NCBI GenBank assembly: GCA_020852295.1
Contig: JADZBC010000009.1
Span: 104,628 to 168,627, forward strand
DNA from: a bacterium
GTDB taxonomy: Bacteria; Patescibacteriota; Saccharimonadia; CAILAD01; JADZBC01
DNA: 64,000 nt
Direction of reading: 5' to 3'
Part shown: in pieces, positions 1 through 60,178 of the stretch
How positions within the stretch are numbered: position 1 is the first letter of the stretch
Layout of the letters: each line of letters opens with the position of its first letter
Made by a program: the position numbers and the translations under genes
Notes under the pieces: model-generated
The model's database searches: none
What the model saw: the letters and a program-made list of their open reading frames with translations, nothing else
Told to the model about the DNA's origin: nothing

Positions 1-663
1 GGTGCGGAGCAGGTTGTTATCACGGTGGCCAAGGGGGTATATAGGGATTTTGTTACGATGGATGACGTGCTGAAGCGGGTGGTCGGCAAGAAGTCAGGCT
101 ATGGTCTGCTTTATGGTCCAATGCTAGCTTCTGAGATTCGCAATGCGCAGCCGGGCTATGGCCTATTGGCGCTCCAGAAGACCAACTTATCTCACGAGAT
201 TGCCCGGGACCTGTCCTTGGGGCACATCTACGCGGAGTTGACTGACGATATTCATAGTGTTGCGTTGTGCGGCGCTCTTAAAAATATCTACGCCGTTGGC
301 TTTGGTATTCATGATGGTTTGGGTTTTGGGGCGAACACAAAGGGGGCGCTTCTCACCAGGTCCCTCATTGAGATGGAGCATATCGTCGATCAGCTGGAGG
401 GTGATCCGCTGGTAGTCTTGAGTGTGGCTGGTGCCGGTGATCTGCTTGCGACTGGCTGGGGTGATCAGTCATTTAATCATCGAGTCGGCCAGGCAATCGC
501 ACTCAGTGGTATGCGCGACGACTTGGTAAGCGAAGGAATTGTGAGCCTCCGTGAGGTTTCGAGCAAGCTGACGCTCACGCAATACCCAATTCTCAATGTT
601 TTGTATCGCATTGTGCAGGGGCATACTCAGCCAGAAACGTTTCGGGAAGTGATTGATGTCTAG
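1..663 (+). CDS. gpsA: NAD(P)H-dependent glycerol-3-phosphate dehydrogenase, C-terminal part (gene starts upstream of window; frame open from nt 1)
   Basis: Translation matches the GpsA C-terminal domain (ALKNIYAVGFGIHDGLGFGANTKGALLTRSL...). The listed ORF starts at a GTG at 25, but the frame is open to position 1. Confidence 0.75.
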   Translation, partial: GAEQVVITVAKGVYRDFVTMDDVLKRVVGKKSGYGLLYGPMLASEIRNAQPGYGLLALQKTNLSHEIARDLSLGHIYAELTDDIHSVALCGALKNIYAVGFGIHDGLGFGANTKGALLTRSLIEMEHIVDQLEGDPLVVLSVAGAGDLLATGWGDQSFNHRVGQAIALSGMRDDLVSEGIVSLREVSSKLTLTQYPILNVLYRIVQGHTQPETFREVIDV

Positions 664-1831
664 TGCGCTCGCCGTTGTGCTGGATGTTGGTACAACAAAA
701 ATAAAGGCCATGGCCTTCAATAGTCAGCTCACGATGCTGCACCACGTTGAGGCTGATGTCAAAAAGACCAAGCCACAATCAGGCTGGGTAGAGCAGGATG
801 CAGAAGAGATATGGCAAATCTCACAGCGGTTACTGGCGCAAATCATTGGTGAATATCCCGGTGAATACATTCAGCTTGGTATTACCAACCAACGCGAGAC
901 GGTTGTAGCTTGGGGCCGAGAATCCGGCAAAGCACTTCATAATGCACTTGTCTGGGAAGACCATCGTGGGGCCGAGCTCTGTCAAAAACTGATCGACAAG
1001 GGGCACGATTCATTCGTGCGGCATCGCACGGGGCTTCACATCAGTCCGTATAGTTCGGCAAGCAAGATTCGATGGCTGCTGGATCAGGAGCAAATCACGC
1101 AGCACAAGGATCTTGTGATCGGCACGCTTGATAGTTGGCTGGCCTATAAGCTGACCGGCCAAGCACTGACCGACTGCACTAATGCCTGTAGGACCCTACT
1201 GTATGATATTCGCCGCCATCATTGGGATGATACATTGCTTGAATTATTCAACATCCCCAAGGGGATACTGCCGGCACTATCCGTGCCCGGAGAAAAAATT
1301 GGCCCAGTTGATAAGAACATATTTAATCGTGAGTTTGATCTAGTTGTAACGATCGGCGACCAGCAGTCGAGTCTTTTCGCGGCCGGGAGTGATCCGGGCA
1401 CATGCAAAATCACGTATGGCACTGGAGTCTTTCCGATGCGTATAGTCGGTAGTCGCTTTATTCTGCATGATTCGCTCATGACTACACTTGCGATCGGCGG
1501 TAACCTTAAGCCGGTTTATGCATGGGAGGGCAAAATTGATAATGCTGCGGCTCGGGTCTCGCCGGTTCTGAATAAGCCCAAAGAGCTCTACGCCACGATG
1601 ATGGAAATTGCCCAAGAAACCCAAAAGGTTCTTGATTTGATCATCGATGATTCGGTGACAGAGATTGTTGTTGACGGGGGCATAAGCCAAAACAATGATA
1701 TATTGCATCGACAGGCAGAGCTGAGCCACAAAGAGATAATCCGTCAAAAATACTACGAAGGTACGGCGCTGGGGGTCGCAAAGTATATCTTTAGCCGCAC
1801 GAAGAAATCAGACGATATGAGCCTGGTGTGA
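653..1831 (+). CDS. glpK: FGGY-family carbohydrate kinase, glycerol-kinase-like (short, 392 aa)
   Basis: N-terminal VLDVGTTKIKAMAF and GITNQRETVVAWGRESGKALHNALVWEDHRG resemble the GlpK signature. It overlaps the gpsA stop. It is shorter than the canonical ~500 aa. Confidence 0.6.
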   Translation: MMSSALAVVLDVGTTKIKAMAFNSQLTMLHHVEADVKKTKPQSGWVEQDAEEIWQISQRLLAQIIGEYPGEYIQLGITNQRETVVAWGRESGKALHNALVWEDHRGAELCQKLIDKGHDSFVRHRTGLHISPYSSASKIRWLLDQEQITQHKDLVIGTLDSWLAYKLTGQALTDCTNACRTLLYDIRRHHWDDTLLELFNIPKGILPALSVPGEKIGPVDKNIFNREFDLVVTIGDQQSSLFAAGSDPGTCKITYGTGVFPMRIVGSRFILHDSLMTTLAIGGNLKPVYAWEGKIDNAAARVSPVLNKPKELYATMMEIAQETQKVLDLIIDDSVTEIVVDGGISQNNDILHRQAELSHKEIIRQKYYEGTALGVAKYIFSRTKKSDDMSLV

Positions 1832-1849
1832 TAGAGTAGAAGCATAAGC

Positions 1850-3043
1850 ATGACACGATATCGCAAAATAGTAATAGTTGGCGGCGGGTTTGGCGGTGTT
1901 AAGGCAGCGCTAAGACTTGCCAATAAAGAAGGCTTCTGGGTGCGACTCATCTCGCCAAAGTCGTATTTTGAGTATCATGCAGCACTGTATCGATCTGCGA
2001 CAGGACATTCCCCACTTGAGGTTGCTATACCGCTCGACGAGCTCTTTGCGAGATCGAACAATGTCGAAGTGGTTGAGGATGCGGTTGTCGGTATGGACGC
2101 CGAGAAGAAGACGCTTACTGGCAAATCAGGGGCTCACTATGAATACGATGAGGTGATTTTTGCGCTGGGCTCAGTCACGAACTACTTTGGTATTCCTGGG
2201 GTTGATCGCTTTGCCTACGGTATGAAAAGTGTGCAGGAGGCTCTTGAGCTCAAAACGCATCTTCATGAACAACTCACAAACCACGATCACGACCATACGT
2301 ATGTCGTAATCGGTGGTGGCGCATCGGGCATCGAGCTCGCCGGGGAACTGGTTGGTTACGAATCTCGCATCCGCCGGGCCCATCACGTGCAGAATAAGTT
2401 TCAGGTAGATTTGATGGAGGCAGCCCCTCGGTTGGTGGCATCACTTGGTGAACGATATTCAAAGAAGATCCGCCAGCGCCTCGGTGCCCTCGGCGTTCAT
2501 GTTATGACCGATTCGTGCGTTGTAAAAGAGACGCTTGATGAGCTCAAACTCAAGCATACATCGGTTCATTCACATACAGTGGTCTGGACAGCTGGTCAAA
2601 CAACACATCCATTTTTTGCACAGTATCCAGAGGTATTTTCATTCAGCAAAAAAGGCAAAGTGAAGGTCGATATGTATATGCGTGCCGCAAAACACATCTA
2701 CGTGATAGGTGATTGTGCCGACACGCAGTATTCGGGTATGGCGCAAACCGCGATCCATGACGCCAACTACGTTGCCGATCAGCTTATTCGTCGATATTGG
2801 GATTGGGACGTAACTCCGTATCGGCCGAAGCGACCAGTCTACGTAATCCCAGTCGGGCCAAAGTGGGCGGCTGTCCGATGGGGTAATTTTGAAGCTTACG
2901 GCTATCTTGGCTGGCTGATTCGCCGCATAGCTGATTTGCGATTATTCCTTATGCTACTCAGTATTTCGCAGGCCTTCGCGGTTTGGCACTACGGTGTTGT
3001 CCGCGAAGAGGCGTGTCCAATCTGTCGGGTCGATACTCACTAG
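1850..3043 (+). CDS. ndh: type II NADH dehydrogenase / FAD-dependent pyridine nucleotide-disulfide oxidoreductase
   Basis: N-terminal Rossmann motif KIVIVGGGFGGV. A second dinucleotide motif YVVIGGGASGIELAGEL. Length is about 400 aa. Confidence 0.65.
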   Translation: MTRYRKIVIVGGGFGGVKAALRLANKEGFWVRLISPKSYFEYHAALYRSATGHSPLEVAIPLDELFARSNNVEVVEDAVVGMDAEKKTLTGKSGAHYEYDEVIFALGSVTNYFGIPGVDRFAYGMKSVQEALELKTHLHEQLTNHDHDHTYVVIGGGASGIELAGELVGYESRIRRAHHVQNKFQVDLMEAAPRLVASLGERYSKKIRQRLGALGVHVMTDSCVVKETLDELKLKHTSVHSHTVVWTAGQTTHPFFAQYPEVFSFSKKGKVKVDMYMRAAKHIYVIGDCADTQYSGMAQTAIHDANYVADQLIRRYWDWDVTPYRPKRPVYVIPVGPKWAAVRWGNFEAYGYLGWLIRRIADLRLFLMLLSISQAFAVWHYGVVREEACPICRVDTH

Positions 3044-3081
3044 GTTCGTGTCTAGTCGCCCAAGTGGTGTAAAATGGTCAC

Positions 3082-4236
3082 ATGACTAAAAACCACTCTT
3101 TTGATGAACTGGCCCTTGAGGCCCATGAAAAACTTCGCGGCAAGATAGAAGTTGTCGCCAAAACGGCTGTGCGCACAGCGGAGGATTTGAGCTTGTATTA
3201 CACGCCCGGTGTTGGCGCGGTTTCACGGCTGCTCGGCGAGAAGCCAGAGCTCGCCAAAGCTTACACGATCAAAAGCAACACCGTTGCGGTCGTATCCGAT
3301 GGCTCAGCAGTGTTGGGCCTGGGCAATATCGGCCCTGAGGGTGCGTTGCCGGTCATGGAGGGTAAGGCCATGCTCTTTAAAGAGCTCGCTGGTGTCGATG
3401 CGTTTCCGATCGTGCTTGATACGCAAGACGAGCAGGAGATCATTGATACTGTTGCGCGGATTGCCCCAGCTTTTGGCGGAATAAACCTTGAGGATATCGC
3501 GGCTCCAAAATGCTTTGCGATCGAGCGAGCTTTACAGGCGCAACTCAGTATACCGGTGGTACATGATGATCAGCACGCCACCGCTATTGTAGTGTTGGCC
3601 GGCCTTATGAATGCGACTAAGGTCGTCAATAAAGAACCGTCTAAGCTAAGGGTGGTAATTTCTGGAGCGGGAGCAGCTGGTAGTGGTGTGGCGCGCCTGA
3701 TTCATGCTTGGGGCGTCGCCGATATTGTCGTAACAGATAGTAAGGGGATCGTGAGTGCTGCGCGCGAAGATCTCAATGATGAGAAGCGGCAACTGCTTGA
3801 AGTGACGAACCAACAGGGCTTGAGTGGCTCAGTTGGTGATGCCCTGGAGGGCGCAGATGTGTTTCTGGGCCTATCGCAGCCAAACGTGATTAGCACGGAA
3901 GATGTTGCTCGCATGGCACCGAACCCGATTGTCTTTGCCATGGCAAATCCTCAGCCAGAGATACTCCCAGAAGATGCACTTCGGGGCGGCGCAGCAGTGG
4001 TAGCTACTGGCCGGAGCGACTATCCTAATCAGATAAACAACGTACTGGTATTTCCGGGCTTGTTCAAAGGACTTATTCGGTCTGGGGTGACCCATGTGAG
4101 CGACGGGATGAAGTTGGCCGCCGCCGCGGCGTTGGCTGCTGTCATCGAGTCGCCTACGGCCGAGCAGATCATACCATCAGTTTTTGATAAAACCGTTGTA
4201 GATGCAATAGCTAGGGCGGTGGAGGAGGTTAAATGA
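3082..4236 (+). CDS. NAD(P)-dependent malic enzyme (short MaeA/SfcA-type)
   Basis: YYTPGVGAVSRLL..., VVSDGSAVLGLGNIGPEGALPVMEGKAMLFKELAGVDAFPI and a VISGAGAAGSG Rossmann motif are typical of malic enzyme. Confidence 0.8.
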   Translation: MTKNHSFDELALEAHEKLRGKIEVVAKTAVRTAEDLSLYYTPGVGAVSRLLGEKPELAKAYTIKSNTVAVVSDGSAVLGLGNIGPEGALPVMEGKAMLFKELAGVDAFPIVLDTQDEQEIIDTVARIAPAFGGINLEDIAAPKCFAIERALQAQLSIPVVHDDQHATAIVVLAGLMNATKVVNKEPSKLRVVISGAGAAGSGVARLIHAWGVADIVVTDSKGIVSAAREDLNDEKRQLLEVTNQQGLSGSVGDALEGADVFLGLSQPNVISTEDVARMAPNPIVFAMANPQPEILPEDALRGGAAVVATGRSDYPNQINNVLVFPGLFKGLIRSGVTHVSDGMKLAAAAALAAVIESPTAEQIIPSVFDKTVVDAIARAVEEVK

Positions 4237-7541: not shown

Positions 7542-8168
7542 TTAATACTTTCGGATGAGGCCAATCACGACGCCCTGTATCTTCAGGGGCGTGCCGGGCT
7601 CTACATAGATAGGCTCCATTGAGGAGTTGGCGGGTTGCAAACGAATGCGACGAGCCTCCTTGTAGTAGCGTTTGAGTGTAGCTTCTGAGTTATTGACGAG
7701 CGCAACAACGACTTCACCGTTACTCGGTACTTCCTTCTCTTGCACGACCACATAGTCACCGTCGTGGATGCCGTCTTCGATCATGCTCTCACCCTTTACC
7801 TGCAATACATAGCTATGCTTGCGGCCAACCATAAATGGTGGTACTTCGAGTGTTTCGGTGTGTCCTTCGGTCGTTTCAATTGGTCGACCTGCAGCGATCA
7901 GTCCAAGAATTGGCAAAGCTACGCCATCGCCTTGAGTGATAGCCGCTTCCACTTCTTCGACGGGGAGGAGAGAGCGAGCGGAGTTATTGCCCTTGGTGAG
8001 TAAGCCTTTACCGACCAAAGCCTCGATGTGCTGCGCCACGGTGGCGACCGAGCTAAGCTTTAAGCCATTGGCGATCTCGCGGTAGCTTGGTGAATACCCG
8101 CGTTGCTCAATAAAGCTCGTGACGTAGTCTAGAGTACGACGCTGTTTTTTGGTCAAGGCACTTTTCAT
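7542..8168 (-). CDS. lexA: LexA repressor (SOS regulator, S24 peptidase)
   Basis: N-terminal wHTH (YSPSYREIANGLKLSSVATVAQHIEALVGKGLL). AG cleavage site (LIAAGRP). Ser/Lys peptidase motif (VKGESMIEDGIHDGDYVVV). Confidence 0.85.
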   Translation of the reverse strand: MKSALTKKQRRTLDYVTSFIEQRGYSPSYREIANGLKLSSVATVAQHIEALVGKGLLTKGNNSARSLLPVEEVEAAITQGDGVALPILGLIAAGRPIETTEGHTETLEVPPFMVGRKHSYVLQVKGESMIEDGIHDGDYVVVQEKEVPSNGEVVVALVNNSEATLKRYYKEARRIRLQPANSSMEPIYVEPGTPLKIQGVVIGLIRKY

Positions 8169-8199
8169 ATTCCCTCCTTACAAAAACTATATTGGCTAT

Positions 8200-8229
8200 A
8201 GTATAACGAACAGTAACCGAACTTGTCAA
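8200..8229 (-). promoter_or_regulatory. sigma70-type promoter for lexA: TTGACA-N18-TATACT on the minus strand, with GTTCGGTTACTGTTCG in the spacer as a candidate operator
   Basis: The minus-strand reading gives GCTTGACAAGTTCGGTTACTGTTCGTTATACTAT about 35 nt upstream of the lexA ATG. Confidence 0.45.
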
Positions 8230-8231
8230 GC

Positions 8232-8277
8232 AAACAAATGCGGGAGGCTTATAAGCTTTTCCCGCATCTGTTTGTTG
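8232..8277 (-). terminator. hairpin after the small upstream gene (acaaatgcggga...tcccgcatctgt)
   Basis: About 13 bp imperfect inverted repeat around a palindromic loop (gcttataagc), immediately 3' of the 8279..8479 gene on the minus strand. Confidence 0.45.
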
Positions 8278-8278
8278 T

Positions 8279-8479
8279 CTAATTTTCTTCAGGTACGTTG
8301 AGTTCGTTGTACTGAGCTTCGGTAACAAATCGAGTTAGATTGGTGCCGTTGTTCTGCGCACGAACTGCGTAACGAGTCTGAGTGCTGCCATTCTTGGTCT
8401 CGCGGACAAACTTCTTCTTGGTCAGTTTGCTGTCGTCAATCTCGACCTTGGCACGGGCCTTTACGTCGTAAAACTGCAT
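8279..8479 (-). CDS. small hypothetical protein (66 aa), basic, upstream of lexA
   Basis: ORF has an SD-like aggagg upstream and its own terminator hairpin. No domain recognised. Confidence 0.45.
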   Translation of the reverse strand: MQFYDVKARAKVEIDDSKLTKKKFVRETKNGSTQTRYAVRAQNNGTNLTRFVTEAQYNELNVPEEN

Positions 8480-8619
8480 TTTTCTTCACCTCCTCCCTTA
8501 GTATGAATTTAGCCTCAGGTTCGCACAGCTCGCCTCACAATGCAATCATGAGCGCTATTCTAAGCTTGCGAATTTTTGTATCTCGGCGTTTAATAAGGCT
8601 AGTAAATAAGGTGTAGAGT

Positions 8620-10957: not shown

Positions 10958-11129
10958 CAGTATGAATCGTGGCGGTGGCGATGCAGTGTATGGACTGGGG
11001 TTCATCGGGGCGCTCATCTACTACTTCCAGAATGCCACTAACTTTTGGATGGTATTAGTCGGAATCTTCAAGGCATTTTTCTGGCCAGCATTTTTGGTGC
11101 ACGCCTTGCTCGGTTTTTTGAAGATGTAG
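10935..11129 (+). CDS. small membrane protein (64 aa)
   Basis: Two TM segments. Overlaps the previous gene by 23 nt. Start uncertain. Confidence 0.35.
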   Translation: MKERLKNSSMNRGGGDAVYGLGFIGALIYYFQNATNFWMVLVGIFKAFFWPAFLVHALLGFLKM

Positions 11130-11182: not shown

Positions 11183-12049
11183 ATGAAAGTACGAAAAGCA
11201 ATTATCCCGGCAGCCGGTCTTGGTACCCGCTTCCTCCCGATGACTAAGGCGATGCCAAAAGAGATGTTGCCGATCATCGATAAGCCAGTTATTCAGTATG
11301 TCGTAGAGGAGGCGGTCGCGGCCGGCATCACCGACATTATTATTGTTACTGGGCAGCACAAGCGACCGGTCGAGGATCACTTCGACCACCAGTATGAGCT
11401 TGAGGCAAGCTTACGCGAAAAAGGTAAAGATGAGGTGGCTGACGAGCTAGCCCGCATCGCCGATATGGCCAATTTTATTTATGTTCGTCAAAAGGGCCAT
11501 TATGGTAACGGTACGCCGATCCTCAATGCGGCCCATCTAATTGGCGATGAGCCATTTCTCGTACTTTGGGCCGATGACTTTGTGCGTTCTACCGTGCCGC
11601 GCGCCAAGCAGCTGGTTGATGCCTATGAGCAGCTTCAGGCGCCCGTTATCTCACTCATCCCGATCAAGCCGTCTGATGCGAGCAAGTACGGCGTGCCAGC
11701 GATTCGCAGCAAGCGCGAGGCTGACCTTTTTGAGATCGAAAAACTCGTCGAGAAGCCAGGCGTTGATGAAGCGCCAAGTAAGTTTGGGTCGGTTGGTGGC
11801 TACATCCTCACGCCCGACATAATTCCACTACTAGAGGCACAGCATCCCGACAAGACCGGTGAAGTCTATCTGAGTACCGCGATTGACCAATTGGCCGCTA
11901 AGCGTCCGGTTTTTGGAAAGGTTATCGAAGGCACTTGGCATGATACTGGCAGTAAGACGACTTACCTGCAGGCCATTGTTGACGTTGCGCTCGAAGACAA
12001 GAAGATTGGGCCAGCCTTTCGCAAATATCTCGAAAATAAACTTAAATAA
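11183..12049 (+). CDS. galU: UTP--glucose-1-phosphate uridylyltransferase
   Basis: KAIIPAAGLGTRFLPMTKAMPKEMLPIIDKPVIQYVVEEA is the GalU signature. Confidence 0.85.
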   Translation: MKVRKAIIPAAGLGTRFLPMTKAMPKEMLPIIDKPVIQYVVEEAVAAGITDIIIVTGQHKRPVEDHFDHQYELEASLREKGKDEVADELARIADMANFIYVRQKGHYGNGTPILNAAHLIGDEPFLVLWADDFVRSTVPRAKQLVDAYEQLQAPVISLIPIKPSDASKYGVPAIRSKREADLFEIEKLVEKPGVDEAPSKFGSVGGYILTPDIIPLLEAQHPDKTGEVYLSTAIDQLAAKRPVFGKVIEGTWHDTGSKTTYLQAIVDVALEDKKIGPAFRKYLENKLK

Positions 12050-12150
12050 TTAGCACAAAGGGAAGCGGCTCGGTTGAGCCCCGCGAGTACGTCGTTGTAC
12101 CGCAGGACTCTTCCGAGCCGCGTGTGCCCATTCGGGCGGTTCCCCAGAGA

Positions 12151-13188
12151 TCAGGCCTCGTCGGCCTGTTGCCGGCGCGGCTTGCGCGCCAGCAGGATGG
12201 ACGATCCCGCCGCAAAGAGCAGCAGGCCGCCCGCCACCAGCCACGGCGTGTAGCTGTTGGGGCCGGTGCAGGCGAGCCCACGGGGTGGGCAGTCGCTGCT
12301 CGGCCTGTTGCCGGCTGAGCTGGGGGTGGTCGTGGTCACCGCCGGGGCGGTGGTCGACGTCGTGCTCGTGCTGGTCGTCGTGGTGACGATGTCGCTCGTG
12401 CACTTGCCGTCCAGTCCTGGCGTGATCGCCCCCGAAAGGGTGATCGTGCGTCCGTCCTCGGCTTGCGCCACCAGCTGGTAGCTCGTCACCGTGGTGGCGC
12501 CGGGCAGCTGGTAGTTGTGGGCTTCAGCCGTACCCTCGCGGAGGGAGAGTCCGGCAAGGCCGGGAAAGGTCGGTGAACTCGTCACCGTCCAGTTCACGTC
12601 GCCGTTGTTGGACGCCTCCACCCGGAGGGAGTACACACCGACCGTCTCGCACTTGGCGTAGGCCTGGGTCGAACCCAGCAGCTCCGTCGGTGGCTTGACG
12701 GTCGTGGTGGTCGTCTTCATGGTGGTGGTCGTGACCGGTGGCTTGCAGCCGGTGGCCTCGTAGACGGCTTCGCGGCTGTCGCCGCCATCGCCGTCCGTCC
12801 ACTCCATGTCGAAGAAGATCAACCCTTGGCCGACTGAAGTCTTGGCGAGCTTGAGGCTCGCGGACGCGGTCTGGCCGGGCTTGACCTCGCCGAGGTTCGC
12901 GTACACCGAGGTGTCGCGATCAACGGCCGAGACGTACATCGACCGATGGTCGTTGTTGGTGAAGGAGACCTTCACCACGACCGACTGACTGCCCTCGGGG
13001 CAGCTGGCCGACGCGCTGGTTTCCACCGTCCACGCGCCAGCCACTTGGGCCGTCGCGATGGTGAACAGGCAGCCGATGAGGGCCGCCACGAGAATACGCA
13101 ATTGGCGCATTTGAAAACTCAACTTTCTCTGGGGATGTGGGGAACACCGTGGTGCGGCCAGCCGAAGCGGCGCAAACACGGAAGGCAT
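12151..13188 (-). CDS. secreted, Thr-rich cell-wall-anchored surface protein with LAxTG-type sorting signal (high-GC, foreign)
   Basis: Signal peptide. Thr-rich linkers. C-terminal LACTG + hydrophobic stretch + RKPRRQQ tail. Local GC about 68% by eye, against about 50% background. Confidence 0.7.
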   Translation of the reverse strand: MPSVFAPLRLAAPRCSPHPQRKLSFQMRQLRILVAALIGCLFTIATAQVAGAWTVETSASASCPEGSQSVVVKVSFTNNDHRSMYVSAVDRDTSVYANLGEVKPGQTASASLKLAKTSVGQGLIFFDMEWTDGDGGDSREAVYEATGCKPPVTTTTMKTTTTTVKPPTELLGSTQAYAKCETVGVYSLRVEASNNGDVNWTVTSSPTFPGLAGLSLREGTAEAHNYQLPGATTVTSYQLVAQAEDGRTITLSGAITPGLDGKCTSDIVTTTTSTSTTSTTAPAVTTTTPSSAGNRPSSDCPPRGLACTGPNSYTPWLVAGGLLLFAAGSSILLARKPRRQQADEA

Positions 13189-13302
13189 AAGATACCATAA
13201 AATACAAAAAAAGTCAATATATTTCGCATCTAATGCTTAAGCTTGATCTGGAGGGGGAATTATTGTACTATAGCAATCCCGTTCCCAACCTGTGAGGTTA
13301 TC

Positions 13303-13848
13303 ATGAAGCTTTACCAGCAATGGTGCCGATTGCGCACCCGCCTGAAGCTGGGTCGCCGCCATGGCTTCCCGCCCGGACTCCAGAATGTGTCCACATCTCA
13401 GCCCGGCGAGTCGTTTCGCGCCCGCCCCAACTTCTACTGGTATCGAGCGATCGGATGGCCGAGCTACATGCCGGTCTATCCTCAGCCAGCGCTCGTTCGT
13501 GGTACCGCCATCACCGAAGGGTGGCCGTGCGAGTTTCGCAGCACGCGCTGGCGCGCCCGTTGGGCCGGCCCGTACTGTGTTGACTGCGACGACCCAGCAG
13601 GTGATTGGGTGCTCGTAGTCGGCCAGGTGCATGGTGAGTTGGTGCGCAACGAGCACAAGCTGGCGGATGGCACACATGAGTCGTCCGACATCTGGAACCG
13701 CATCAAGGCTCCAATCGAGAAGCTTCGGCCCGGTATTGATCCGGCCACGCTCAGGATCGATGCGACGGGCATGTTCGTCTACGGCTACGTGCCGGACCTC
13801 TGGTTCGGCAACACCGGCTGGCACGACATCCCAGACGAGGAAGGGTGA
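13303..13848 (+). CDS. hypothetical Trp/Arg-rich protein on the high-GC island
   Basis: Very high third-position GC in this frame, about 80% counted by hand. ATG at 13303 chosen over the upstream in-frame start; start uncertain. Confidence 0.45.
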   Translation: MKLYQQWCRLRTRLKLGRRHGFPPGLQNVSTSQPGESFRARPNFYWYRAIGWPSYMPVYPQPALVRGTAITEGWPCEFRSTRWRARWAGPYCVDCDDPAGDWVLVVGQVHGELVRNEHKLADGTHESSDIWNRIKAPIEKLRPGIDPATLRIDATGMFVYGYVPDLWFGNTGWHDIPDEEG

Positions 13849-13852
13849 ATCG

Positions 13853-13886
13853 CCCCGACAGGCTCCGCTTGTCGGGGTTTGTCGTT
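13853..13886 (+). terminator. hairpin ccccgac...gtcgggg + T-rich tail
   Basis: 7-bp GC stem immediately after the TGA of the island gene. Confidence 0.5.
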
Positions 13887-13932
13887 ATTGATGATTGCAC
13901 AATTTTCTCGGTAGTCGTAGGATAGATATGGT

Positions 13933-14697
13933 ATGGCAAAGAACGAAGCACTCATCAAGGTAAAGGACATCAAGAAATACTACGGCGATTTTGCCGCGGT
14001 TAAAGGTGTTAGCTTTGAAGTAAAGCCGGGTGAAGTTTTTGGCATTCTGGGGCCAAATGGTGCCGGTAAAACCACGACGCTCGAGATGATCGAGGGCTTA
14101 AAATCGATTGATGACGGTAAAGCCACGATCAACGGTCTTGATGTCGTCCGCGACCCCTATGGCGTCAAAGAAATTATTGGCGTACAGCTCCAGGCATCGG
14201 CTTTTTTCGATCATCTTTCACTAGTAGAGATACTGCATTTATTTTCAAACCTGTACGCCCAAAACAAAGATCCGCAAGAGCTTCTACGCGAAGTCGACCT
14301 GACCGAGAAGGCCAAGGCCTACGTCAAGAGCCTGTCGGGCGGGCAAAAGCAACGCTTTAGTATCGCTGCCGCGCTGGTCAATGACCCCGTTGCCTTGTTT
14401 CTTGATGAGCCAACAACTGGACTCGATCCGCAGGCGCGGCGCAACTTGTGGGATCTAGTTCAGGACATTCAGAAGTCCGGCAAGACGATCGTCATCACCA
14501 CGCACTATATGGAAGAAGCAGAAGTGCTCTGTGATCGGGTGGCAATTATGGATCACGGCGAGATTATTGCTCTGGATACCCCAAGTAAGCTCATTGATAA
14601 CTTGCTCAAAAAAGGCTTTAAGCCGAAGACGGAAGTAAAAAAGGCGACTCTTGAGGATGTATTTATTGATTTAACTGGGCATGAGTTGAGGGACTAA
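13933..14697 (+). CDS. ABC transporter ATP-binding protein
   Basis: Walker A GPNGAGKTT. LSGGQKQR signature. Walker B LFLDEPTTGLD. Confidence 0.85.
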   Translation: MAKNEALIKVKDIKKYYGDFAAVKGVSFEVKPGEVFGILGPNGAGKTTTLEMIEGLKSIDDGKATINGLDVVRDPYGVKEIIGVQLQASAFFDHLSLVEILHLFSNLYAQNKDPQELLREVDLTEKAKAYVKSLSGGQKQRFSIAAALVNDPVALFLDEPTTGLDPQARRNLWDLVQDIQKSGKTIVITTHYMEEAEVLCDRVAIMDHGEIIALDTPSKLIDNLLKKGFKPKTEVKKATLEDVFIDLTGHELRD

Positions 14698-18330: not shown

Positions 18331-19506
18331 ATGAAAATTTCTCGAGATAGTATTACGAAGTCGATAAGCATATTATCGGCTAGTTTATTGATTGGCGTTA
18401 CAAGCGTATCTGCACAAACGCCCGGTACGAATGGTCGGCTGATTTTTGCTAATATCGGTGGCACGTATAATGGCGGAACAGAAGTAGGGACCGGTATGTT
18501 CACCATAAAAAATGATGGTACTGGACCGCATCAATTCAGCATGCCGTTCGTGAATACAGGTGGCGACACAAGTGCCTCATACTCCCCTGACGGCACAAAG
18601 ATTGCCTACGCGGGCGAATATGTAGATGGTAATACTAACATTGATATCCTTGTTCGAAGCGCAGATGGGACTGGTACTGTAACGCGTGTTACTAGCTCCT
18701 CATCAGGCTTTGACGAGCATCCTCGCTGGAGCCCAGATGGAACCAAGATAGTATTCACTAGAAATGTATCTGGTGATCGTGAGGTAATCACTGTAAATTC
18801 TGATGGAACAGGTAGCGAGGAGGCTATCACCACGAATGGAGCCGGTGGGGGCGAAGATCCAACCTATACGCCAGATGGGAACTCAATTGTTTTCGTACGA
18901 GGCACGGGTGCGATCGTATCGCTAGATTCGACAGGAACAGAACAGAATGCCACCGCCATCACTTCAGGTAGCGCAACTCGACAGAACCCAGATGTATCGC
19001 CAGATGGTAGCACAGTTGTGTATTCGCTAAGCGATACCAGTACGTCACAATCGATTCGTACGGTAGCTATAGGGGGCGGCAGTGATGCCACTCTGGTTAC
19101 TGCTGCATCGGACAATATGTACAAAGGCTATCCATCATACTCTCCTGATGGCACAAAAATCGCCTTTATTCGCAGTAGTAGCAGTAGCTCACCTAATGCA
19201 GTGGATGACATCCGTGTGTACACAATTGCTGGTGGCGCGACGACATCAATTTTCTCTTTCGACGCCAACAGTGGTGCGCAGTCAAACGGAAATCTGTATT
19301 CGTTGACATGGGGGACCAATAACGCGACTCTAACGAATAACCTAGGCGGTGACGCATTCAACACTGGGCTACCTGACACTGGATCGAAAGCACCAAAGCC
19401 TTTTAATGGTCTACTGCCAGCAATTCTAGCAGCCGGTGCGGTACTGTTGCTCGGTGCATTTGGGTTCGTGTGGTACAAGCGCGAATTTGGACGCAAGAAT
19501 CGCTAG
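18331..19506 (+). CDS. LPXTG-anchored surface protein with PD40/TolB-like beta-propeller repeats
   Basis: Signal peptide. Repeated SPDGTKIAY/SPDGTKIVF/TPDGNSIVF/SPDGSTVVY motifs. C-terminal LPDTG + hydrophobic stretch + KREFGRKNR. Confidence 0.75.
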   Translation: MKISRDSITKSISILSASLLIGVTSVSAQTPGTNGRLIFANIGGTYNGGTEVGTGMFTIKNDGTGPHQFSMPFVNTGGDTSASYSPDGTKIAYAGEYVDGNTNIDILVRSADGTGTVTRVTSSSSGFDEHPRWSPDGTKIVFTRNVSGDREVITVNSDGTGSEEAITTNGAGGGEDPTYTPDGNSIVFVRGTGAIVSLDSTGTEQNATAITSGSATRQNPDVSPDGSTVVYSLSDTSTSQSIRTVAIGGGSDATLVTAASDNMYKGYPSYSPDGTKIAFIRSSSSSSPNAVDDIRVYTIAGGATTSIFSFDANSGAQSNGNLYSLTWGTNNATLTNNLGGDAFNTGLPDTGSKAPKPFNGLLPAILAAGAVLLLGAFGFVWYKREFGRKNR

Positions 19507-19515
19507 AGGTCTCTC

Positions 19516-20280
19516 ATGAGCTCACCTGAGCCTGTTCTTTGTGATCATTGTAAGAAAGAGATGGAGCAGGTTCAGGCAGATTTTTGGGGTAAGAAGCCAC
19601 CAAAAAAAAAGCAGCCACGATCGACTCAGGATAGATGGCTGCTTTGGGGATCACGCATCGCGCTTGTGATGATGTTTTTTATCGCTGAAGTGATGGGTAT
19701 GTATTGGTGGGCGAGCCATAATACGCCGCAGATTGACGGCTCGGTCGGAGATCTCAATATCATAGTTCCGGCCGCCACGCTCGAAAGGGCCGATGCCGCC
19801 CCATCTGCAGCACCAAGTGGCTACAATGGTACGGTCACGGGAGGCACGTATACCCTGGCGATCCAAAAACTTGGTTTGCGAGCACCAGTTGTACCTGTTG
19901 GTAAGACGGCCAGCGGCAATATGGACACGACGCCATCGCTGTATCAGGTAGCGTGGTATAAGCTCGGTGCGCGCCCGGGCGAGAAGGGTAATGTGGTACT
20001 GGCTGCCCACTATGGCGCCCCTGATCAAGAGGGGGTATTTCGTTCAATCGATCAGCTCAACCCAGGCGATCAGCTAACCATTGTAGTGAAAGACAATCCA
20101 AACCTGACGTATCAGGTTGTTCGGAAAGAGTACTACCCAGTCGATAACGCGCCACTAAATGCGATCTTTGGACCAAACAACAAAGCAGCTCTCAATCTGA
20201 TTACTTGCGCTGGCGACTGGGATGCAGGGTCGCGCTCGTACAACAAGCGCCTCGTTGTCTATACTGAGCTGGTGAAATGA
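19516..20280 (+). CDS. sortase (transpeptidase)
   Basis: N-terminal TM. Catalytic TLxTC-type motif LNLITCAGDW. Conserved His region. Sits directly downstream of the LPXTG substrate. Confidence 0.8.
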   Translation: MSSPEPVLCDHCKKEMEQVQADFWGKKPPKKKQPRSTQDRWLLWGSRIALVMMFFIAEVMGMYWWASHNTPQIDGSVGDLNIIVPAATLERADAAPSAAPSGYNGTVTGGTYTLAIQKLGLRAPVVPVGKTASGNMDTTPSLYQVAWYKLGARPGEKGNVVLAAHYGAPDQEGVFRSIDQLNPGDQLTIVVKDNPNLTYQVVRKEYYPVDNAPLNAIFGPNNKAALNLITCAGDWDAGSRSYNKRLVVYTELVK

Positions 20281-38404: not shown

Positions 38405-38959
38405 ATGACCGAATTGCGCGATTACTTCGCGTACGGCTCCAACAACGACGCGCAGATGCTGGAGCGCCTCGGTCGACTGCCGTCCAAGGCGGTTGGCTTC
38501 GCCGAGCTGCATGGCTTTCGACCCGCCTTCATGGGTCGGAGCGTCAAGCGGTTCTGTGCCACGCTCACCGCCGTTCACACCGGCGACTTCGCCGATCGCG
38601 TGTTCGGCACGCTGTACCTCGACCTGACGGAAGAGGAGTTCGCCATCCTCGACCGCAAGGAAGGGGTGAAGTACGACGATCAGGGCAAGCCGACGGGCCG
38701 CTACATGCGGATCAGCCGACCGGTGACGATCAACGAAGGCGAGACCGCCGATCGTCAGGCTGAGCTCTACGTGATGACCGGCAACCTGCAGGTCGATCGC
38801 GAGGAGCGTGCGCCCAGCACGGACTACCTCTACAACGTCCTACAGGCCGCCTTCACGGCGGGCATGCCCGACTGGTACATCAAGAAGTACCTCATGGTGC
38901 CCACCGAGAACGTCGTGCGCCACGAGCGCATGCCGATCGACGACTGGCAGCCCGCCTGA
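38405..38959 (+). CDS. gamma-glutamylcyclotransferase (AIG2/GGCT-like), high-GC foreign gene
   Basis: N-terminal YFAYGSN motif. GC about 65% by eye with strong GC3 bias. Confidence 0.65.
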   Translation: MTELRDYFAYGSNNDAQMLERLGRLPSKAVGFAELHGFRPAFMGRSVKRFCATLTAVHTGDFADRVFGTLYLDLTEEEFAILDRKEGVKYDDQGKPTGRYMRISRPVTINEGETADRQAELYVMTGNLQVDREERAPSTDYLYNVLQAAFTAGMPDWYIKKYLMVPTENVVRHERMPIDDWQPA

Positions 38960-39184: not shown

Positions 39185-39261
39185 GGGCCCTTAGCTCAGT
39201 TGGTTAGAGCACCTGCCTTTTAAGCAGGGTGTCGTGGGTTCGAGCCCCACAGGGCCCTCCA
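39185..39261 (+). tRNA. tRNA-Lys (TTT)
   Basis: Cloverleaf with anticodon loop cuUUUaa. T-arm gtgggttcgagccccac. CCA encoded. Confidence 0.9.
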
Positions 39262-55500: not shown

Positions 55501-55575
55501 TTGGAGCGGGTAGCGGGAATCAAACCCGCATCGCCTGCTTGGAAGGCAGGAATAATAATCTTTATACCATACCCG
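55501..55575 (-). tRNA. tRNA-Gly (TCC)
   Basis: 75 nt. Anticodon loop cuUCCaa at standard positions. GC-rich T-arm. A/U-rich D-arm without G18G19. Confidence 0.8.
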
Positions 55576-55678
55576 CATGGTTTTGTAGGTACTATTATAA
55601 ACCATTGAAAATACTACCATATTATTATATAATCAGCAAATCGCTATACACTCGACAACCCCCGGAAGGGAGCACGCG

Positions 55679-56341
55679 ATGGCGAAGAACCGTGACAAGA
55701 AGAAGGGCAGCAAGAAGCCCCAGATGAAGGCCGCCACGCCGGTCAAGTCGGGCAAGAAGAAGCCAGGGAAGGGCAAGCACGCCCACAAGAAGGTTGCTGC
55801 GATCATCGACTCGCACGACCAGAGCAAGATGGTGGTGGCTCGAGATGAGCTCAACGTTGCGATCGCGGCGTTGTCGCTCAGCAAGCCGCTGGCGGTGCTG
55901 GGTCTGAAGCCGCGCATCATGGCCATCTTCTCGAAGCTGGGTGTGGAGACGATCGGTCAGCTACTCGCCTTCCCGGACGAGACCTGGCGCCATCGCGGCA
56001 TCGGCTACGTGTCGCTGCGCGAGATCGATCGGGCATTGCGCCCGTTGGGCCTCGAGCTTGATCATCAGCCGGCGTCCGGCTACCACCTCACCACATCGAG
56101 ACTTACGCTCGAAGACCTCAGTGTCGTCGTTCCGCGAGTGGTTCGGGGTGGTGACAGTTCCGTGATCTGCTGCATCGAGCTGCAGAAGCGGTTCGGCGTG
56201 GTGACGGTCGCCGATCTGCTGGCGCTCGATGATCAGACCATCAGAGCCAGCCTGCCAGACAACGAGGAGTTGCCCATCTTCATGGAGGCAGTCGGTGAGC
56301 TGAGGGAGGCTCAGCGCCGCCTCGAAGCGTCGGCGGACTGA
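55679..56341 (+). CDS. high-GC foreign gene: Lys-rich N-terminal tail + two RpoA-alphaCTD-like helix-hairpin-helix modules
   Basis: GC about 65% by eye. LGLKPRIMAIFSKLGVETIGQLL and IELQKRFGVVTVADLL resemble alpha-CTD HhH motifs. Confidence 0.45.
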   Translation: MAKNRDKKKGSKKPQMKAATPVKSGKKKPGKGKHAHKKVAAIIDSHDQSKMVVARDELNVAIAALSLSKPLAVLGLKPRIMAIFSKLGVETIGQLLAFPDETWRHRGIGYVSLREIDRALRPLGLELDHQPASGYHLTTSRLTLEDLSVVVPRVVRGGDSSVICCIELQKRFGVVTVADLLALDDQTIRASLPDNEELPIFMEAVGELREAQRRLEASAD

Positions 56342-57409: not shown

Positions 57410-58786
57410 TTATCGCCAGCTCGGTAGCCAGAAATGCATATTGTAGTAGTCGAGGCTGACTGGGTAGCCGTAGGTGAGTGGTGAGAAAAAGAGATAAGAA
57501 GCGCAAGCGAGTCCAAGTAGGACATTGAAGTAGGTGTTGCGCTTTTGTCGCGGTAATTTGTCGATCAAATACATCAAGATAAGGATTGAAAAGACAAGTG
57601 CTGTCAGATAGTGATAGAGGAACATGACTCGTTTTATCTGTATGAATGGCAAGAGGTTGATGATGTAGGCAAAGTAAAGAATCTCAAGCTGCCCAGTAAT
57701 TTTGACGCGCTTCGTTAGGAGGCCAATAACGCCTAGCACCACTGCAGCCAGGGCCGCATACCAGATGACAGGGTTGCCGAGGAGATAGATATTCTCAACC
57801 CGCGGATCTGACTTATCCGTGCCTTCCCAGTAGTAGACACCTCGCTGCATGAGCGGCCAACTGTACCACTTGCTGCCATAGGGGTGGGAGTCGCCGCCGA
57901 TACCAGTGTTTGACTGGTACATAACACGGTTAAGCTCAATGAACTTTTCGAACTGGCTGGCGGTTTTGAGGTCTGCCACACTTCCATATTTGTTGCCCTC
58001 AAGTGTGCGTTGAAATTCCTGTGACATATAGTCGTCGCCCGGGCCAGATTTTGTGAGCAATGAGAAATGCACCATAAAGACCGAAACGTAGAGTAGGATC
58101 GGTGGAATCATATAGAGAAAGATGCGCAAGATAGTTTTGCCTTGAGGCCACCACTTGCGCTTACCCCAGTGTGCAATCAGCTCATAAACGAGCGGAATCA
58201 TTAGGAAGGTGAGTCCGGTCCATTTTATCGAGGCGGCCGCACCGCCCAGCAGTCCCGATGCGACAAAGAAGAGGATATTTTTATTGCGCCGATACAGTAG
58301 ATAGAGCAGTAGTGAGAGAAATCCAAATAGCAGCAAAAAGCTATCGAGCAAAATGAATCGGGATTGTACGATCAAGGCGTTTTCTAGAGAGACAAGTAGA
58401 CCAGTAGCGGTGGCGGCCCGGAGGCTAAAGCCAAGCTCGATTGCCAAGAAGAAGAGTACGAGGGGGAGCAGTGTGCCGGCCAAGGAGGGCAAAAACCGGA
58501 GTATCATGTAGCCGTTGTCGGCGTATTGCGCACCAATTTTTTCAAACTCGGAGGTTGGTACGTAGCCAGCAGCTTTTGCAAAACCGGTGATGAGCAGCTT
58601 GCCGAGTGGCGGATGGATATCGAAATAGTATTGATTATTGTAGTAGCTTGATACGAACTTACCGAAGTAAACCTCATCGAAAACTGCTTCTTTTGGAGTA
58701 CCAAAAAACGCAAAGTGCGTAACGAGGCTAACAATCAAAACTGCTAGAGCAGCAAATACCTTAGGTCGTTTCTTTACGAATTCCAT
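57410..58786 (-). CDS. GT39/PMT-family protein O-mannosyltransferase-like glycosyltransferase
   Basis: N-terminal DE-containing loop (AVFDEVYFGKF) and HPPLGK motif. Multiple TM segments. Confidence 0.7.
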   Translation of the reverse strand: MEFVKKRPKVFAALAVLIVSLVTHFAFFGTPKEAVFDEVYFGKFVSSYYNNQYYFDIHPPLGKLLITGFAKAAGYVPTSEFEKIGAQYADNGYMILRFLPSLAGTLLPLVLFFLAIELGFSLRAATATGLLVSLENALIVQSRFILLDSFLLLFGFLSLLLYLLYRRNKNILFFVASGLLGGAAASIKWTGLTFLMIPLVYELIAHWGKRKWWPQGKTILRIFLYMIPPILLYVSVFMVHFSLLTKSGPGDDYMSQEFQRTLEGNKYGSVADLKTASQFEKFIELNRVMYQSNTGIGGDSHPYGSKWYSWPLMQRGVYYWEGTDKSDPRVENIYLLGNPVIWYAALAAVVLGVIGLLTKRVKITGQLEILYFAYIINLLPFIQIKRVMFLYHYLTALVFSILILMYLIDKLPRQKRNTYFNVLLGLACASYLFFSPLTYGYPVSLDYYNMHFWLPSWR

Positions 58787-58809: not shown

Positions 58810-60178
58810 GTGGTATGGGTGCTGCAGGGGATACAATTGTACATAAGTACTATGAACGTATCTCCGTACATCCAGAAAAAACTCGGCTGGCCAATGATTA
58901 TTGGTGCTGCCTTTGTGGTGCCCACAATACTGTGGCTAACCATACACCCGGTCGGTGACGTGGTGAGTTCATGGACGAGCTTAGCCTATGGGCTCGGCAG
59001 GTTATTTGGCATATGGGGTGTTTGTCTGTATGCCATCAATCTAGTAATGTCTGCTCGTTGGCGTTGGCTTGAGCCATGGTTTGGAGGGCTCAATCGTGTC
59101 TACATTGCCCATCACACGACCGGTGGCATAGCGCTGGTCTTGCTGCTCTTTCATCCTGTTTTTCTGGCATTACAAAAACTAGCTATCTCCGCCTTCACTG
59201 CGGCCCGCTTCTTGTTGCCTGGCTATAGTTTTGCGACTGATCTTGGTTTAATCGCATTGTTTGGGATGGTCTTCTTGCTCTTTCTTACTTTTTACACCAA
59301 GCTCCCATATGAGATTTGGAAATTCAGCCACAAATTCCTAGGAGTTTTCTTTGGTGTGAGCGGGCTTCACATCCTACTGATTGAATCAGGTGACATGGAG
59401 AGCTCAATCTTACTCAAAGCCTACGTACTTGCCATTATGGCAGCAGGGGCATTTGCCTATACTTATCGAACATTGCTACCAAAAATATTTTGTTCGAACC
59501 TACGAGTATGAGGTGGAGGGGGTCCGCCAGCCATGGAAAGAGGTGATTGAGATGACACTCAAGCCCAAGAATCAGCTCATGAACTTCCAGCCTGGTCAGT
59601 TCGTGTTTGTGTCGTTTACTGATTCGCAATTGGTAGCGCGGGAATCACATCCATTTTCGATTGTGTCTGCTCCAAAGGATGGGCGGCTCATTTTGACAGC
59701 CAAGACGCTCGGCGACTACACGGCCAGCCTGATCAAACTTAAGTCGGGTACAACTGCCAAGATCGAGGGTGCTTTTGGTAAGTTCTCCTACATCAATTTT
59801 AAAAACAATGACCAGATATAGATCGCGGGTGGTATCGGAATCACGCCATTTGTCTCAATGGCGCGCTCACTCGAGATGACGCCAGACTGCAAGGTCGATA
59901 TGTTTTATAGCTGCAAAACAGAGCCAGAGCTGATCTACCTCGATGTCATACGTCAAACTGTCGAAACACACAACAAAAACTTCCGGATTTTCCCCTGGAC
60001 AGCCGATAAGATGGGCATGATTACCGCTGACAAGATCAAGCAAAAAGTTGGCGATGTTAAGGGTAAAGACATCTTTTTGTGTGGACCACCACCAATGATG
60101 AAGGCACTCCGTGAGCAGTTTATCAAGCTGGGTGTGCCAAATGACCATATTCATAGTGAGGAGTTTTCAACCAAATGA
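58810..60178 (+). pseudogene. ferric-reductase-like flavocytochrome (TM heme domain + FAD-binding + NAD-binding) disrupted by a frameshift near 59490 and an in-frame TAG at 59819
   Basis: Three consecutive ORFs encode the TM His domain, the FAD domain (HPFSIVSAP) and the NAD domain (IAGGIGITP). Frame 1 to frame 2 switch at an AAAAATATTTT run. TAG directly before GGIGITP. Confidence 0.6.

Follow-up and report, generated by a model that had tools for sequence, protein, structure and literature searches.

The window analysed here is a stretch of 64,000 nucleotides of contig JADZBC010000009.1, within which two GC-rich open reading frames, ORF1 and ORF2, lie between galU and the operon of an ABC transporter. 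The original prediction, made from the sequence of the window, had read them as a foreign island passed from an actinobacterial host to its epibiont. The best explanation of the evidence presented here is a different one, with a probability of roughly 55%. The two genes form a self-contained accessory cassette, resident since before the split from the related lineages L007 and L008. Their persistent GC-richness is a property of the locus rather than the mark of a recent import, and the first gene encodes a wall-anchored, variable surface protein.

The composition of the island is anomalous and its borders are sharp. In 300-bp windows, for which the mean outside the island is 0.499 (standard deviation, SD, 0.041), the GC content steps from 0.49 (11750-12049) to 0.71 (12050-12349) immediately past the stop codon of galU and remains at 0.64-0.71 up to about position 13100. 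It drops to 0.37-0.42 at 13150-13300, the divergent promoter region between ORF1 and ORF2, is 0.60-0.65 across ORF2 (13250-13850), and is 0.47-0.48 again by 13850-14300. Over the whole of 12050-13880, this AT-rich promoter dip excepted, GC is 0.60-0.72 against a background of about 0.50. The elevated GC is restricted to the transcribed parts, the promoter spacer not being GC-rich. At third codon positions the GC content (GC3) is 0.878 in ORF1 and 0.758 in ORF2, compared with 0.531 (SD 0.042) in 23 other genes, which amounts to deviations of about 8 and 5 SD. Codon choice in both genes has moved wholesale toward codons ending in C or G, with ACC/ACG, GCC/GCG, CGC, and GGC favoured. The jump directly after galU, the very high GC3 of the coding frames, and the return near the ABC gene had all been predicted and are confirmed; the shift persists under proper computation, in the window statistics and the codon statistics alike.

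At least three relatives carry the same cassette at this position, flanked by galU and the ABC operon. It is present in a sister strain (L001-L006) with 93-96% nucleotide identity to the window; in L007, where galU and the ABC gene are 95% and 91% identical to those of the window at the amino-acid level; and in L008, where galU is 82% identical and ORF1 is present, with ORF2 missing. The order galU-ORF1-ORF2-ABC was recovered on independent ENA, JGI, and Logan assemblies. The window shares its junctions, promoter blocks, 3' hairpin, and terminator with L007, and partly with L008. An assembly chimera, or contaminating high-GC DNA in the contig, would give an abrupt shift of composition at both edges such as is seen here. 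This is hardly credible, however, given that eight or more independent assemblies, drawn from three sources, have the same junctions and that the non-coding junctions are conserved across diverged lineages. Because the same junctions and regulatory elements occur in lineages with synonymously saturated flanks, the cassette is considered to be old.

Presence and absence of the island in relatives had been proposed as a check, and the outcome is mixed. Presence is clear in the window clade, L007, and L008. In L051 (galU 88% identical) the ABC gene lies divergently upstream of galU and the cassette is absent within 4.2 kb; as this locus has been rearranged, it does not count as a clean empty site. 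Scanning JGI metagenomes with galU as the seed gave 51 loci. Of these, only L051 and L017 (which is the contig of L007) were sufficiently close and long for comparison; the more distant loci share no synteny. One candidate relative, L064 (0.71 GC, 96% identity over 46 amino acids), was rejected, the match being only the conserved N-terminal motif of galU in an unrelated high-GC organism.

Between the sister strains, synonymous divergence (dS) is 0.016-0.096 in the cassette versus 0.24-0.37 in the flanks. Identity across the island is a mosaic of 88-100%, with 98-100% over 12800-13800 and 88% over 12400-12600. No integrase was found in the cassette and no att-like or target-site repeats or tRNA genes at its borders, the nearest tRNA being 1.5 kb away. 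A 10-nt inverted repeat bracketing ORF1 (12141-12150 and 13126-13135) was discarded, as about two such repeats are expected by chance in 2.2 kb. Two scans of viral contigs and a tblastn search against plasmids gave no sign of a phage or plasmid origin. Beside the locus there is strain-level variation in gene content: the alignment of the window with L001 breaks at 10965, and L001 has a gene of more than 1261 codons (1-3786) upstream of the small ORF before galU, where the window has tRNA-Met and an ORF of 88 amino acids.

Fourfold degenerate sites were compared in three lineages, on low-identity alignments, using codons at which the amino acid is identical and correcting the expectations for composition. 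The dS estimates of the NG86 method were set aside for the distant pairs, as they are unreliable at this composition (undefined or >3). Between the window and L007, the excess 4-fold identity is 0.08-0.19 in the flanks, 0.36 in ORF1, and 0.23 in ORF2; between the window and L008 it is 0.16 in galU and 0.12 in ORF1. The pooled flanking sites differ between the window and L007 at a fraction of 0.64, or about 1.45 substitutions per site when corrected. The flanks are essentially saturated between these two, and the 4-fold sites of the island have largely turned over too. Despite this turnover, the GC content at these sites (GC4) over the three lineages is 0.82-0.96 in ORF1 and 0.63-0.76 in ORF2, with 0.45-0.63 in the flanks. 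The small L007-L008 subset gives 0.78 for ORF1 (n=51).

A two-state decay model was supplied with the flank divergence and the observed GC-changing share of 0.84, and assumes an equal mutation rate in island and flanks. Starting from 100% GC at the split, neutral decay would then have brought the window to no more than 0.71 and L007 to no more than 0.64; with half that time, the figures are 0.81 and 0.77. The GC4 of ORF1 is above all of these predictions, and its GC-richness would therefore be maintained rather than being the fading sign of an import. It is tentatively suggested that the GC-rich synonymous composition of ORF1 is actively maintained in this 50% GC genome, either by selection at the nucleotide level or by biased gene conversion.

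A related alternative takes both genes to be native and lineage-specific, with their synonymous sites driven to G or C by selection (on mRNA stability or structure, or on expression) or by GC-biased gene conversion at a site of frequent recombination between strains. The high GC4 of three lineages would be expected from such a drive, as would the restriction of high GC to what is transcribed. The mosaic identity of the sister strains suggests recombination, and the low dS of the island between them likewise favours a drive of this kind. The ORF2 family points the same way: the closest relative of ORF2 outside the locus (P0006, 48% identical) has a GC3 of 0.52 on a 49% GC contig, and the family genes on other contigs have a GC3 equal to or slightly above that of their neighbours, so that the high GC3 is a derived state of the window locus. 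Against this, at a genome GC of 50%, a GC3 of 0.88 far exceeds the usual effects of codon bias. In addition, dnaK, which is presumably highly expressed, has a GC3 of 0.57, ordinary for the window, and a PD40 gene replaced between strains (described below) has a low GC3 of 0.42; recombination by itself therefore does not increase GC at this locus. A purely native drive is considered doubtful.

The cassette could instead be native to a higher-GC sister lineage of the clade, from which it was introgressed, perhaps repeatedly, into mid-GC relatives. Two loci with galU 77-80% identical (L058 and L059) are 0.58-0.59 GC overall, with a GC3 of 0.65-0.83 in neighbouring genes. Comparison of the window with L007 gives the island about half the 4-fold divergence of the flanks, and the segment 12800-13800, nearly identical between the sister strains, is set in flanks of 93-96% identity. 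However, the contigs of L058 and L059 end within galU, short of the cassette position. GC returns to background precisely at the stop codon of galU on one side and the terminator of ORF2 on the other, and the flanks lack the GC-rich or low-divergence segments expected from recombination; third-position identity over the first 70 codons of the ABC gene is 0.44. The amino-acid divergence of ORF1 between lineages is also large, with 44-57% identity where galU is 82-95% identical. Introgression is thus regarded as quite improbable.

Relatives of the two proteins are scarce. Among 5.8 billion proteins there are three matches to ORF1, all metagenomic, and three close matches to ORF2. All of the close matches are at the same syntenic locus or are unplaced metagenomic sequences, which means that the nearest homologues belong, where they can be placed, to the same lineage. 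Nearest hits in Actinomyces, Schaalia, or Corynebacteriales had been anticipated; no actinobacterial homologue of either protein was found in this search.

The sole part of ORF1 with relatives outside the clade is its first mature domain, domain A, for which a profile identifies 19 clusters. Those with genomic context (L009-L012) are tandem genes of about 180 and 475 codons between yjbQ and hflX, on contigs of about 38-40% GC from uncultured small genomes. The domain A genes there have a GC3 of 0.25-0.42, a composition native to those genomes. The tandem pair has Pro/Thr-rich linkers and fn3-like repeats, and the larger paralogue has a plain membrane anchor. Two of the contigs (L009, CAZDOJ010000001.1, and L010, OZ246394.1) are from metagenome-assembled genomes and are 1.3 and 1.6 Mb long, with about 38% GC over the 21-kb loci. 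Their label, 'uncultured Gammaproteobacteria', looks doubtful; on L011, a related contig, genes for a sortase and a YkuD protein are close by.

ORF2 had been described as Trp/Arg-rich, and its 5.5% Trp and 9.4% Arg, against a background of 0.9% and 4.8%, agree with this. An exhaustive HMMER search of 1.84 billion representative sequences, which carry no organism names, gave 79 clusters of its family, with the motifs H-x-PG, DVST, PNFYY, GWPCE, S-x-IW, and LW-x-GNTGWH. The family has two branches. One is leaderless; the other has a signal peptide, lipobox, or N-terminal anchor, with N-termini rich in Gly, Ala, Arg, and Pro. The window ORF2 groups with the leaderless branch and not with the other, and is predicted to be a cytoplasmic member of this uncharacterised family. 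Also leaderless are P0032, on a contig rich in pseudopilin and hypothetical genes (L071), and P0029, on a contig (L015) syntenic with the window over HrcA-GrpE-DnaK, with DnaK 78% identical, and over ComEC-YebC-RuvCAB. On the latter contig (ENA ERZ1758171), which corresponds to 29.9-46 kb of the window, the ORF2-family gene (8001-8495) is directly upstream of ComEC; the family therefore sits at different positions in related genomes.

The only ORF2-family match with an organism name, P0026, is in the signal-peptide branch and is labelled Candidatus Parcubacteria. Its contig (L069, JAHWKN010000031.1) is 60% GC and encodes a G6PD/6PGD fusion, an MDMPI_N-domain protein, and GSDH. This gene content is unusual for Parcubacteria, and the label may be a binning error. 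No match to ORF2 was found in Pfam, NCBIfam, PHROG, PADLOC, or the PDB. An AlphaFold2 model from a four-sequence alignment has a mean predicted local distance difference test (pLDDT) score of 33.0 and is uninterpretable. Between the window and L007, ORF2 has a dS of 1.5 and a nonsynonymous divergence (dN) of 0.22.

ORF1 was originally described as a secreted, Thr-rich protein of 345 residues. The secreted and Thr-rich character stands; the gene is on the minus strand and the protein is shorter, at 319 residues beginning MRQLRIL. Translation of the 345-codon frame (12151-13188) almost certainly begins at the ATG at 13110: a promoter-like site ends at 13189, directly against the upstream ATG; gene calls on eight independent contigs give 319-320 residues; and the upstream ATG is out of frame in L007. 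The features are collected in Table 1. By reading of the sequence, MRQLR is followed by the hydrophobic core of a signal peptide that would end in VAGA, before a W. In the alignment of the domain A family, the residues W, C, F-x-N, G, T, F, G, S-R, A, Y, and C are invariant; searches of Pfam and the PDB with domain A gave no match. The second domain, domain B, is restricted to the window clade and L008, being missing in L007, and is among the most variable stretches between the sister strains, with 88% nucleotide identity; in L005 identity is 86% over 12200-12599. A duplication relating domains A and B was rejected, as there is no detectable similarity between them. Thr makes up 15% of the residues and is found mostly in the two linkers, as had been claimed.

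Table 1. Features of the cassette and of associated genes, with their positions in the window
Feature	Position	Strand	Basis and details
Spacer between the galU and ORF1 stop codons	12050..12150	-	GC-rich; long hairpin, arms 12065-12085 and 12101-12121
ORF1, 319 aa (amino acids), predicted secreted surface protein	12151..13110 (stop codon included)	-	ORF list, GC3, orthologues at the same locus in L001-L008
Predicted signal peptide, aa 1-26 (MRQLRILVAALIGCLFTIATAQVAGA)	13033..13110	-	Read from sequence; helix 2-21 in model; conserved in orthologues
Domain A, aa 27-122, all-beta Ig-like, bracketed by Cys37 and Cys122	12745..13032	-	Seven predicted strands, pLDDT 66-75
Thr-rich linker 1, aa 123-141 (KPPVTTTTMKTTTTTVKPP)	12688..12744	-	Read from sequence; pLDDT <50
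Domain B, aa 142-237, second all-beta, Cys-bracketed	12400..12687	-	ORF1 orthologue alignment
Thr/Ser-rich linker 2, aa 238-278	12277..12399	-	Read from sequence; pLDDT 29-37
Predicted cell-wall sorting signal	12154..12276	-	LACTG 12262-12276; spacer and hydrophobic segment 12187-12261; basic tail 12154-12186
Divergent control region, AT-rich, GC 0.37-0.53	13111..13302	.	Blocks conserved in L007, partly in L008
ORF1 promoter-like site, TTGACT-17-TATCTT	13217-13189	-	Promoter scan; 5' untranslated region about 75 nt
ORF2 promoter-like site, TTGATC-17-TACTAT	13243-13248 and 13266-13271	+	By eye; 8/12 positions, under scan threshold
ORF2, 181 aa, leaderless, Trp/Arg-rich	13303..13848	+	GC3 0.758; GAGGT ribosome-binding site
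Intrinsic terminator after ORF2	13852..13888 (hairpin 13852-13878)	+	12-bp GC-rich stem, then T-run; right edge of the island
Class-F-like sortase	19516-20280		Pfam Sortase 72.7 bits; His165, Cys232, Arg245 in expected motifs
Protein O-mannosyltransferase (PMT and PMT_4TMC domains)	57410-58786	-	Native composition

ORF1 evolves in a fast and modular way, with domain B absent from L007 and LAxTG absent from L008. The whole protein belongs to no Pfam family, and nothing significant was found for its mature domains in the PDB, Pfam, NCBIfam, PHROGs, or PADLOC. The AlphaFold2 model of ORF1, also from a four-sequence alignment, has a pLDDT of 54.6, and a Foldseek comparison of it with the PDB gave generic beta-sandwich proteins alone (TM about 0.2).

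The C-terminus of ORF1, as far as can be read from the sequence, carries a complete tripartite cell-wall sorting signal of the LAxTG type. It consists of LACTG (residues 279-283), a spacer and hydrophobic segment (284-308) that includes the 19-residue stretch WLVAGGLLLFAAGSSILLA (290-308; mean Kyte-Doolittle 1.99), and the basic tail RKPRRQQADEA (309-319). The hydrophobic and charged parts whose absence would have told against a sorting signal are thus present, as first described. The motif is LAYTG in the orthologue P0001 and LAFTG in that of L007 (P0003), with none in that of L008 (P0002). ORF1 is probably a secreted surface protein anchored by a sortase. The sole profile matches of the C-terminus are Streptomyces LAETG models, all under their cut-offs: with NF041528 (strep_LAETG, a model of 35 positions) ORF1 scores 29.1 bits, the cut-off being 30, and the LAYTG and LAFTG orthologues score 21.8 and 22.5.

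The original prediction had named LAxTG as the motif of actinobacterial housekeeping sortases, and the literature does assign LAXTG to the class E sortases of Actinobacteria (PMC8225981, PMC5148588) and LPXTG to class F sortases (PMC8225981, PMC13251363). The window contains a single sortase, 6 kb from ORF1. Its model scores are 109 bits for class F (cut-off 166) and 38.5 bits for class E (cut-off 160), and its NCBI name is class F; there is no class E sortase in the window by this model. Class-E-like features had been proposed as something to look for in this enzyme. The class E score lends no support to them, but Tyr148 falls at the position of the S3-subsite Phe of Clostridium perfringens SrtD (4d70) in a weak, low-scoring, sequence-only alignment. 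That Phe has been equated with a conserved Tyr of class E (SrtE1 Tyr229, in the beta3/beta4 loop) that is proposed to favour Ala at P3 (PMC5148588). Tyr148 is suggestive of a resident sortase that might accept LAxTG.

Adjoining the sortase is a gene for a PD40/TolB-like beta-propeller protein (18331-19506; L001 11228-12385), which carries LPDTG, as had been stated for the other substrate of the window. The gene is 60-67% identical in nucleotide sequence to that of the sister strain, and the DNA on both sides of it is 94-100% identical. It looks like an allelic replacement of a surface protein between strains.

Transfer of the cassette from an actinobacterial host, bringing a LAxTG surface protein for mimicry or attachment, agrees with several of these observations. 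The codon usage is typical of high-GC bacteria, the motif is that of class E, the C-terminus matches Streptomyces profiles only, and the ORF2 branch with signal peptides and Gly/Ala/Arg/Pro-rich N-termini would fit high-GC organisms. There are other GC3-rich genes beside tRNA genes in the window, and its ComEC and type IV pilus ATPase make DNA uptake plausible. The distribution of the genes does not bear this origin out. No actinobacterial homologue came up among the 5.8 billion proteins or, for ORF2, in the HMMER search of representatives without organism names. The one organism-named match is assigned to Candidatus Parcubacteria, the relatives of domain A are in genomes of about 38% GC with native GC3, and the leaderless sequences with which the window ORF2 groups include one from a contig syntenic with the window. 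The synteny across saturated flanks would make any transfer ancient, in which case ORF1 should have ameliorated. The central promoter region is AT-rich and fits hexamers of the sigma-70 type, the integrase, att-like repeats, and border tRNA of a mobile island are missing, and the premise of a Saccharibacteria-type epibiont comes from gene content. Transfer from an actinobacterial host is therefore judged unlikely. A further idea, that ORF1 is aimed at the host and that a class E sortase of an actinobacterial host grafts it onto the host wall, tethering the epibiont, is prompted by the LAxTG signal, the lack of a class E sortase in the window, and the host-like composition. It is thought very unlikely.

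Several points tell against a long-resident cassette whose GC-richness belongs to the locus. The age argument draws on three lineages and on an equal mutation rate in island and flanks. The 4-fold divergence of the island, about 0.6-1.1, is below the 1.2-1.9 of the flanks; were this due to later lateral spread within the clade, the amelioration argument would be relaxed, up to the 0.77-0.81 of half the elapsed time. The GC4 of ORF2 is borderline compatible with plain decay. Three further genes in the 64 kb are GC3-rich, two of them adjoining tRNA genes, a pattern like that of repeated import from high-GC sources, and the sorting signal resembles actinobacterial models alone. Anchoring, glycosylation, and surface exposure of ORF1 are predictions, and the structure models are poor (pLDDT 55 for ORF1 and 33 for ORF2).

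If the cassette is indeed an old resident of the locus, ancient acquisition from some high-GC donor is possible, and no donor can be named. Selection on nucleotides or codons, biased gene conversion where the locus recombines, and repeated exchange among members of the clade are candidates for the force that keeps the synonymous sites of ORF1 GC-rich. ORF1 would be exported by the Sec pathway. A sortase, for which the class-F-like enzyme of the window is the simplest candidate, would cleave it between the Thr and Gly of LAxTG and attach it to peptidoglycan. On the wall, ORF1 would display its disulfide-bracketed, Ig-like domain A as a tip on Thr-rich stalks, which are plausible substrates of the protein O-mannosyltransferase (PMT) of the window and are probably O-glycosylated. 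The fast amino-acid divergence, the gain and loss of domains, and the mosaic identity between strains suggest a surface-exposed adhesin or antigen under diversifying pressure. ORF2 would not be an obligate partner of ORF1, since L008 is without it.

The cassette appears to be equipped with its own regulatory elements. The galU gene and ORF1 are convergent, ORF1 and ORF2 are divergent, and the ABC operon follows. The hairpin at 12065-12121 is probably the 3' end of ORF1 or a bidirectional terminator. Its consensus fold has 30 pairs and -36.6 kcal/mol, and it is nearly invariant among the window, L001, L005, and L007; L008 retains it through changes on both sides at 5 pairs. The spacer containing it is about 90% identical to that of L007 although the flanking 4-fold sites are saturated. 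The hairpin is conserved far better than the synonymous sites of the flanking genes, and it may have a role beyond that of a terminator. No convincing structure was found in the 5' untranslated region of ORF1, the consensus fold being just -2.8 kcal/mol, and an Rfam search of the window gave tRNAs only. ORF2 most likely starts at the ATG at 13303 and not at the TTG at 13243 of the NCBI record. The N-terminus from this ATG is conserved in L007, and the NCBI start overlaps the -35 box. The GC-rich hairpin terminator predicted at the end of the island is present, and L007 retains it with a compensatory change (GAC/GTC to GGC/GCC).

Among known systems, the Streptomyces chaplins ChpA-C and the SCO1860 family (NF041528, NF041527) have the same plan as ORF1, with a signal peptide, LAxTG, a hydrophobic segment, an Arg/Lys-rich tail, and GC-rich coding. 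ORF1 and its orthologues differ from these class E substrates in falling below the cut-off of their model, in having mature domains without actinobacterial relatives, in lying in a window with no class E sortase, and in belonging to a genome of about 50% GC that is not recognisably actinobacterial. In class F systems, first characterised in Propionibacterium acnes, the likeness is to the resident sortase, which has class F as its best match and adjoins an LPDTG substrate. It is nonetheless below the class F cut-off, and class F is reported with LPXTG, whereas ORF1 has LAxTG. At the S3-subsite position, on the weak alignment described above, it has Tyr, as does class E, while SrtD has Phe.

The members of the domain A family (P0007-P0024) share with ORF1 the N-terminal Ig-like domain, at 30-41% identity, with its Cys pair and the motifs F-x-N, W-x-DG, and SR-x-A-Y. 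As in ORF1, the domain comes after a signal peptide or anchor and before a low-complexity stalk. In contrast to ORF1, their linkers are Pro/Thr-rich rather than Thr-rich, there is no LAxTG, fn3-like repeats take the place of domain B, and the genes have a native low-GC composition and another genomic context.

With horizontally acquired islands, the cassette has in common the discontinuity in GC and GC3, accessory genes of unknown function, promoters and terminators of its own, and, as far as the rearranged locus allows the comparison, absence from the corresponding position in L051. Unlike such islands it has no integrase, flanking repeats, tRNA target, or identifiable donor, and it has been kept in place across saturated lineages without the expected amelioration. 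The Pam pili of Candidatus Mycosynbacter amalyticus are built of Ig-like pilins specific to the Candidate Phyla Radiation and are proposed to contact the host (bioRxiv 10.64898/2026.03.03.709456). Like ORF1, these pilins are secreted, have two Ig-like domains and paired cysteines, and come from ultra-small, uncultured lineages. They assemble by donor-strand exchange and have no sortase signal, whereas ORF1 has Thr-rich stalks and a predicted wall-sorting signal. A sequence search with ORF1 gave no match to any PDB chain.

The other genes of the window include those for RNase Y, DivIC, and MurJ and many small hypothetical genes, in addition to the type IV pilus ATPase, ComEC, sortase, and PMT already mentioned. 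No biosynthetic operons were found in the 64 kb, and the gene content resembles that of ultra-small uncultured bacteria and is compatible with a Saccharibacteria-like organism. PMT could plausibly glycosylate the linkers of ORF1 and also a Ser/Thr/Pro-rich protein at 60175-60918. One of the other GC3-rich genes (38405-38959; GC3 0.87, GC 0.64) is about 225 bp upstream of tRNA-Lys (39185-39261) and encodes an AIG2/gamma-glutamylcyclotransferase-like protein with a weak PHROG match to a phage gamma-glutamyl cyclotransferase. Another (55679-56341; GC3 0.82) adjoins tRNA-Gly (55502-55576) and encodes a protein of 220 amino acids with a Lys-rich N-terminus and weak similarity to the C-terminal domain of RpoA and to a stretch of PglW.

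The cassette is a sortase-signal surface-protein cassette of a known type, made from uncharacterised domains, and its odd property is persistent GC-richness. Neither of its protein families has been characterised. Should the organism be an epibiont, a rapidly evolving protein that is anchored to the wall and carried on a stalk that can be glycosylated would be a reasonable candidate for contact with the host. A GC island together with a motif typical of another phylum resembled transfer from host to parasite; comparison across lineages shows an old cassette, in place, with no identifiable donor. With a GC4 of 82-96% in three lineages whose neighbouring genes are saturated, ORF1 offers a small, clean case for studying what, besides recent transfer, holds the composition of a gene.

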